A stretch of DNA of 64,000 nt, taken from contig JBHLNF010000015.1 of the NCBI GenBank assembly GCA_048937405.1, positions 661-64,660 of the forward strand, given 5' to 3'. The notes beneath the pieces were generated by a model. The model worked only from the letters and a program-made list of their open reading frames with translations, was not told where the DNA came from and did no database searches. Below are positions 21,317 through 22,006 of this stretch, piece after piece (position 1 is the first letter of the stretch; every line of letters begins with the position of its first letter). The position numbers and the translations under genes were made by a program. Source of the stretch: Promethearchaeota archaeon (GTDB lineage: Archaea; Asgardarchaeota; Lokiarchaeia; Sigyniarchaeales; SOKP01).

Positions 21317-21634
21317 CTACTCTTGAATAAGTATGTTCTCCTCAGGAAATCCAAGATCAATCAAAAACTTCTTCAATTTAAATCTATGATCTCCCTGCAA
21401 CTCCACTTTATTATCTCTCACGGTCCCTCCAGACGCACATTTCTTCTTCGCCTTCGTCAATATATTATGCAAATTTATGTCAAAATTGCCTACAAACGTA
21501 ATAACTGTAACAACACGCCCCCATTTCCTTCTGTCATTAGATATCACTATTTGTTGTTCATCAGCACTCAAACTATCACATATACATAGCTCTTTTGGAA
21601 AACTACATATAGCACATATATCGTCGTCTTTAAT
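21317..21634 (-). CDS. Translation initiation factor aSUI1 (eIF1 homolog). The 5' end is extended beyond the track ORF to an apparent ATT start.
   Basis: SUI1 core: RRKWGRVVTVI..., KKCASGGTVRDNKVELQGDHRFKLKKFLIDLGF. In frame upstream of the track's TTG the sequence reads (TAA) E S I K D D D I C A I C S F P K E L C I C D S. This is the conserved archaeal aSUI1 zinc knuckle (C-x2-C-x6-C-x-C). No ATG/GTG/TTG lies between the stop at 21641..21643 and this motif. Confidence 0.8.
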   Translation of the reverse strand: MKDDDICAICSFPKELCICDSLSADEQQIVISNDRRKWGRVVTVITFVGNFDINLHNILTKAKKKCASGGTVRDNKVELQGDHRFKLKKFLIDLGFPEENILIQE

Positions 21635-22006
21635 ACTCTCTTATCACAACCAATACTGTAATACTTTAAAAATTTTAAATCTAACAAATAATAGAATAAA
21701 ATCTTATAAAAATCTTTTTCATTTTAAAAACACACCAATAGTAAACCGATGCAAATTCTCATAACTAATCAATGCTTTGCTCTTTAATAAGAATTCAAAA
21801 TATGGAAGAATAGTAATAGATGACTCCGTAATCTAAAAATTGTAGCTTATATTTACTCCACTCTTTTTATTTGAATTTTCGCTCTAGGATCTAGTAAATT
21901 AAATTAAACACTATTTATTCCAATTAAAAAAATATTTAAAGAAAAATTTTTATTATTTATCAATAGACTTATTCTATATGTAAGAATATATATGTGATTC
22001 TTTAAA

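Follow-up and report, generated by a model that had tools for sequence, protein, structure and literature searches.

The aIF1/SUI1 gene in a 64,000-nucleotide stretch of a Promethearchaeota genome (contig JBHLNF010000015.1; the whole stretch is called the window below) very probably starts at an AUU codon, at positions 21634..21632 of the minus strand. The need of this gene for a non-canonical start, first proposed in an earlier note on this DNA, is supported by the comparison of related genomes. The reading as a whole, namely an intact aIF1 initiated at AUU with negative feedback as the likeliest purpose of the codon, is favored on balance. By analogy with known systems, we tentatively propose that the AUU start serves autoregulation of aIF1.

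Judged by its database matches, the window protein is a true aIF1. Specifically, it scores 64.9 bits against Pfam SUI1 (PF01253; cut-off 25.5, E = 9.6e-18) and 114.2 bits against NCBIfam PRK00939 (NF002096; cut-off 98), and phmmer aligns its residues 7-105 with chain residues 3-101 of M. jannaschii aIF1 (PDB 4mo0; E = 5.7e-24), an alignment that covers the zinc knuckle and pairs CAICSFPKELCIC of the window protein with CPRCGLPKELCVC. Because the alignment reaches residue 3 of the M. jannaschii chain, the N-terminus is expected within one or two codons of ATT. If ATT is decoded as Met, the product is MKDDDICAIC...ILIQE. The knuckle is of the CxxC...CxC kind that many archaeal aIF1 proteins carry at the N-terminus, and all four of its Cys residues are unchanged in 77 relatives. 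Because the knuckle codons vary almost solely at third positions in these 77 sequences, the knuckle is translated and under purifying selection. Binding to 30S and rejection of near-cognate start codons are assumed for the window protein by homology; both activities are described as known for P. abyssi and S. solfataricus aIF1 (PMC6237735, PMC4705826).

On the minus strand, the reading frame runs TTG TGA TAA GAG AGT, then ATT AAA GAC GAC GAT ATA, and enters the knuckle with TGT GCT ATA TGT AGT TTT CCA, continuing AAA GAG CTA TGT ATA TGT GAT AGT TTG. The in-frame stops are TGA at 21646..21644 and TAA at 21643..21641, and the stop-to-stop translation is ESIKDDDICAICSFPKELCICDSL... When the frame was re-read, all coordinates that the earlier note gave for the locus proved correct, including the knuckle I-C-A-I-C-S-F-P-K-E-L-C-I-C at 21619..21578, the absence of ATG, GTG and TTG between the upstream stop and the knuckle, and a first canonical start, the TTG at 21571..21569, that lies after the knuckle. 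A canonical start missing over eight codons in one genome is plausible by chance, so the significance of the layout rests on its recurrence.

Features of the aIF1 locus in the window
Feature	Position	Strand	Basis
AAAGATTTTTATAAG, conserved BRE/TATA-like promoter element	21703..21717	-	76 aligned upstream regions
GGTTGTGA, Shine-Dalgarno-like element with GTGA/GTGAT core	21644..21651	-	0-1 change per site, 77 sequences
9-nt spacer (TAAGAGAGT) with in-frame TAA	21635..21643	-	between GGTTGTGA and ATT
ATT, very probable initiation codon (AUU)	21632..21634	-	79/79 sequences; coding periodicity begins here
aIF1/SUI1 coding sequence	21317..21634	-	ATT start to stop codon, 105 aa; Pfam, NCBIfam and PDB 4mo0 matches
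ATA, second Ile codon (rejected start)	21617..21619	-	ATT 71, ATA 6, ATC 2 among relatives
Zinc knuckle C-x2-C-x7-C-x-C (CAICSFPKELCIC)	21578..21616	-	aligned to M. jannaschii aIF1 knuckle
TTG, first canonical start (rejected; would remove knuckle)	21569..21571	-	TTA in 71/77 relatives

A search of one genome per prokaryotic species yielded 80 loci from close relatives with 67-95% identity, nearly all labelled Promethearchaeota. Two loci were set aside, one being N-masked and the other cut by a contig end. In all 78 complete loci, ATT occupies the same codon and is preceded, 1 to 4 codons away, by an in-frame stop, and ATG, GTG and TTG are absent before the first Cys. The upstream stop is at -12, -9, -6 or -3 according to lineage; in L085 (a deeper Loki-type relative), TAA directly adjoins ATT. 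In the contigs of four metagenome runs that span the site, there is no variant at 21632-21634 and no indel, and variants fall only where species also differ. The ATT layout is not an assembly error, and the sequencing error that the earlier note had allowed for is excluded by the agreement of the 78 loci and by the metagenome contigs. The depth of these contigs is 10- to 100-fold higher at 21572-21622 (the knuckle stretch) and at 21691-21724 (the promoter motif); these segments are short stretches near-identical across many co-occurring strains.

The evolutionary behavior of the codon sets ATT apart. The first codon is ATT in 79/79 full coding sequences; across the same 79 sequences, the seven other conserved Ile columns each mix ATT, ATA and ATC. 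Changes were scored by parsimony at each site on a tree of 77 sequences that we built from the downstream portion of the gene. ATT has zero changes at all three bases, and from ATT on substitutions fall almost entirely at third codon positions. In the spacer TAAGAGAGT, each position has 2-9 changes, the length is constant, and three-base periodicity is absent. Because all of its positions vary without such periodicity, the spacer is non-coding. The only near-cognate codons present in every lineage are ATT and the second Ile codon, which drifts.

The ATT lies behind a ribosome-binding element of the kind used by other genes of the window. GTGAT or GGTGA occurs no more than 25 nt upstream of 8 of the 53 long ORFs in the window, with about one expected, and in the SD-led ORFs GTGA precedes the real start by 4-10 nt (7-9 nt in most), compared with 9 nt for aIF1. 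GTGA(T) is the ribosome-binding motif of this genome, and its spacing to ATT is typical. Among the SD-led ORF boundaries in the window, that of aIF1 is the only one with a non-canonical codon. A deliberately weakened Shine-Dalgarno element was considered and rejected, GTGA(T) being the normal motif in this genome; the element of aIF1 is as good as any in the genome, and a deliberately poor context like that of eIF1 is not seen. Nor does the gene present a poor-context AUG of the eIF1 type, as it has no AUG and both motif and spacing are typical of the SD-led genes of the window. In a cultured Lokiarchaeon, Shine-Dalgarno elements have been noted in a review as not prevalent (PMC7531240).

From the position of AAAGATTTTTATAAG, the aIF1 transcript is predicted to start near 21677-21683, so that the 5' UTR would measure about 45 nt. 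The predicted fold of the leader is no better than that of shuffled sequences (z = 0.09), and neither a special RNA structure nor an operator was seen in it. Rfam matches over the window comprise three tRNAs and nothing else. A search for RNA sequencing runs containing this stretch gave no match. The tRNA gene at 34825-34899 has a one-mismatch copy of AAAGATTTTTATAAG (34926-34940, minus strand) that ends 27 nt 5' of it, and this copy may calibrate the promoter-to-start distance in Loki genomes.

The homologous Ile codon is probably also the start in a second aIF1 clade (L081-L083, L087, L088, with L084), whose proteins are 109 aa as called and about 64% identical. In this clade, a perfect GAGGTGA, at the place homologous to GGTTGTGA, lies 8 nt before the Ile codon, which is ATT or ATA. 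Gene callers start these proteins at a GTG in frame within the SD element. The three residues between this GTG and Ile are highly variable, and L084, which is related to the clade, has no such GTG and carries ATG AAA TAA 3 nt before ATT; sequence comparison on both points argues for the Ile codon over the called GTG. The two aIF1 types occur together in two MAGs, JBHLLP (L020 and L082) and JBHLOC (L023 and L088), and thus look like paralogs.

The ATT trait is lineage-specific. It extends to the deeper Loki-type relatives L080, L084, L085, L086, L089 and L093, with L089 placing ATT behind GTTGTGA and 9 nt. The homologous codon is TTG in L090 and GTG in L091, and the Thor-like L092 has GTG behind AGGAG. 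Within the Loki-type clade of the protein tree (27 rows, support 100), ATT is present throughout, the one exception being the L090/L091 pair, which is nested beside the ATT-bearing L089. On this pattern, ATT is ancestral for the Loki-type clade and was replaced twice, by TTG or GTG, but never by ATG. A universal ATT start in archaea is rejected by a Bathyarchaeia-like control clade, in which 74/74 metagenome loci read ATG GCT GAA ATT TGT; the same result indicates that the procedure does not create false missing starts. Bathyarchaeia-like aIF1 and M. jannaschii aIF1 (4mo0) resemble the window protein in family, length and N-terminal zinc knuckle but have canonical starts, which is ATG in the Bathyarchaeia-like clade, whereas the clade of the window has ATT and no canonical codon. 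Some labels in the sample are at odds with the gene that they carry. L058 (DATKTW010000159.1), labelled Candidatus Nanopelagicaceae bacterium, encodes a Loki-type aIF1 with 83% identity and the same ATT layout, and the contig is probably mis-binned; near-identical Loki-type aIF1 genes likewise occur in JBHL-series MAGs that bear Odin-, Hermod-, Hod- or Thorarchaeota labels.

Canonical codons other than ATG are readily used elsewhere in the window. TTG and GTG starts are frequent in this genome, with about 14 of 53 window ORFs opening in this way, and TFB (9331..10260) and eL15 (28801..29385), which the earlier note had cited as TTG users, are real genes and both TTG-initiated. A general relaxation of start codons in the window was rejected: in six ORFs with long open stretches ahead of the first canonical start codon, the Pfam domains all begin after that codon. 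At 62840-63038 on the plus strand, an open frame of 64 codons offers no canonical start ahead of an internal ATG and has no Pfam match. An ATG at 62840 lies in another frame and is followed by an A5 run; the segment is a possible frameshift.

In the mechanism that we propose, the small subunit would dock on the conserved GTGA(T)-type SD, 9 nt 5' of AUU, and the initiator tRNA would pair with the near-cognate AUU, giving a 105-aa aIF1 that includes the zinc knuckle. Abundant aIF1 would reject AUU and less aIF1 would be made, while scarce aIF1 would permit more initiation on AUU. Selection holds the codon at AUU itself, as against AUA, AUC or AUG. Negative feedback is the most likely purpose because aIF1 destabilises initiation complexes on near-cognate codons. 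S. solfataricus aIF1 is reported to prevent the formation of 30S complexes on AUU mRNA (Hasenohrl 2009, as cited in PMC4705826 and PMC6237735), and because this protein rejects AUU in vitro, self-regulation like that of infC is plausible. That the Asgard lineage nearest this genome possesses a stringency thermostat, with aIF1 synthesis inverse to aIF1 activity, is a possibility we raise with somewhat greater reserve.

The main rival to autoregulation is plain down-tuning, in which AUU is the true start but does no more than hold translation at a low, fixed rate, the factor being required only in small quantity, with no feedback. With TTG or GTG in sister lineages and ATG in Bathyarchaeia, the AUU trait could simply tune the expression level. 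The relatives with other weak codons (TTG in L090; GTG in L091 and L092) fit this explanation, as does a leader in which no special structure or operator was seen. However, TTG and GTG, common as they are in this genome, would suffice for mild down-tuning, and that about 80 species strictly retain AUU in preference to AUA, AUC, TTG and GTG points to some property that AUU alone has. It is also exactly AUU that aIF1 is described as discriminating against in published work (PMC4705826). We consider a fixed low rate unlikely.

Two mini-ORFs lie in the SD element on the minus strand, one an in-frame TTG followed by TGA (21649..21644) and the other an out-of-frame GTG (21647) that opens five codons and ends in a UAA overlapping the AUU (AUUAA). 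Initiation via one of them, in the second case by termination-reinitiation at AUUAA, would accord with the presence of both arrangements throughout the main clade, where GGTTGTGA, the length of the 9-nt spacer and ATT AAA are conserved, and with the ATG AAA TAA of L084. This route is nonetheless very unlikely. The start codons of the mini-ORFs sit within the SD and have no SD of their own, and the L080/L086/L093 and L085 clades keep ATT with no upstream canonical codon. Both mini-ORFs are absent from the other ATT-bearing clades, and because those clades do without them they look like by-products, as would be expected of a GTG-containing SD at fixed spacing.

The earlier note had left the initiator as ATT or ATA, and only the former stood: the comparative data single out ATT (21634..21632), while the second Ile codon, ATA at 21619..21617, is ATT, ATA or ATC depending on the relative, as an ordinary Ile codon would be. 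Although ATA is near-cognate and in frame immediately ahead of the first Cys of the knuckle, its five preceding codons are conserved in the manner of coding sequence and it is 24 nt from the SD element, so that translation from ATA is highly improbable. A protein that starts at TTG 21571 and lacks the knuckle, which the earlier note had kept as an alternative and which Prodigal-type callers do report as 84-aa products (P0036 and others), is excluded as a conserved start since the codon is TTA in 71/77 relatives and the knuckle codons are under purifying selection, and this reading, together with an erroneous or pseudogenic locus, is scarcely credible given 78 independent assemblies and metagenome contigs that agree without indels.

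Readthrough from the upstream TTG was likewise rejected, as it is barred by the double stop TGA TAA. In ENA, products beginning MWKKSIKDDD... (P0009-P0012, P0014, P0018-P0020) start at the upstream TTG and decode the TGA of the SD region as Trp; they are artefacts of gene callers having applied genetic code 4 to short contigs. Prodigal-type callers shorten aIF1 to 64-98 aa in many public assemblies, and the NCBI pipeline is correct. The ATT start is already implicit in the NCBI annotation, as a 105-aa MKDDDIC... product (P0002).

That a start-codon proofreading factor limits itself by way of the weak start of its own gene is textbook knowledge for bacteria (infC) and established for eukaryotes (eIF1). 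Bacterial infC, which encodes IF3, starts at AUU and is under autocontrol at the level of translation (Butler 1987 and Sacerdot 1996, as cited in PMC3326321). The window gene shares two traits of the infC type, encoding a start-codon fidelity factor by homology and having, from its sequence, a conserved AUU start. In each case a gene for a factor that rejects non-canonical starts has a conserved AUU behind a normal SD, and the same feedback logic would be expected for aIF1. The two systems differ in that the proteins, IF3 and aIF1, are not related and fold differently, that feedback is proven for infC and only inferred for Loki aIF1, and that the AUU trait of aIF1 is confined to the Loki-type clade rather than spread over a whole domain.

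Eukaryotic eIF1 is autoregulated via an AUG in poor context (Ivanov 2010 and Martin-Marcos 2011, as cited in PMC3326321 and PMC6237735). It is the homolog of aIF1 and occupies the same ribosomal site, and in both cases a suboptimal start would let the factor gauge its own stringency. Unlike eIF1, which retains AUG in a weak context, Loki aIF1 has a near-cognate codon in an SD context normal for its genome. A rare ATT start is deduced for an Asgard tubulin in a 2026 paper (PMC13394414), so initiation at AUU is not wholly without precedent in Asgard archaea and the use of AUU may not be unique to aIF1.

Searches of the archaeal translation reviews PMC7531240, PMC6412873 and PMC6237735 turned up no mention of self-limitation of the proofreading factor for archaea. 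Neither a non-AUG aIF1 start nor aIF1 autoregulation was found described in full-text literature searches and targeted reading, the main archaeal initiation review included. A strictly conserved AUU on the Asgard homolog of eIF1 would fill this archaeal gap, and would bear on the origin of the control of start-site stringency in eukaryotes. If the proposed feedback is true, the start-codon proofreader would be self-limited by a poor start in all three domains, through AUU for IF3, AUU for aIF1 and context for eIF1, and an archaeal loop could be the ancestor, or a parallel, of that of eukaryotic eIF1.
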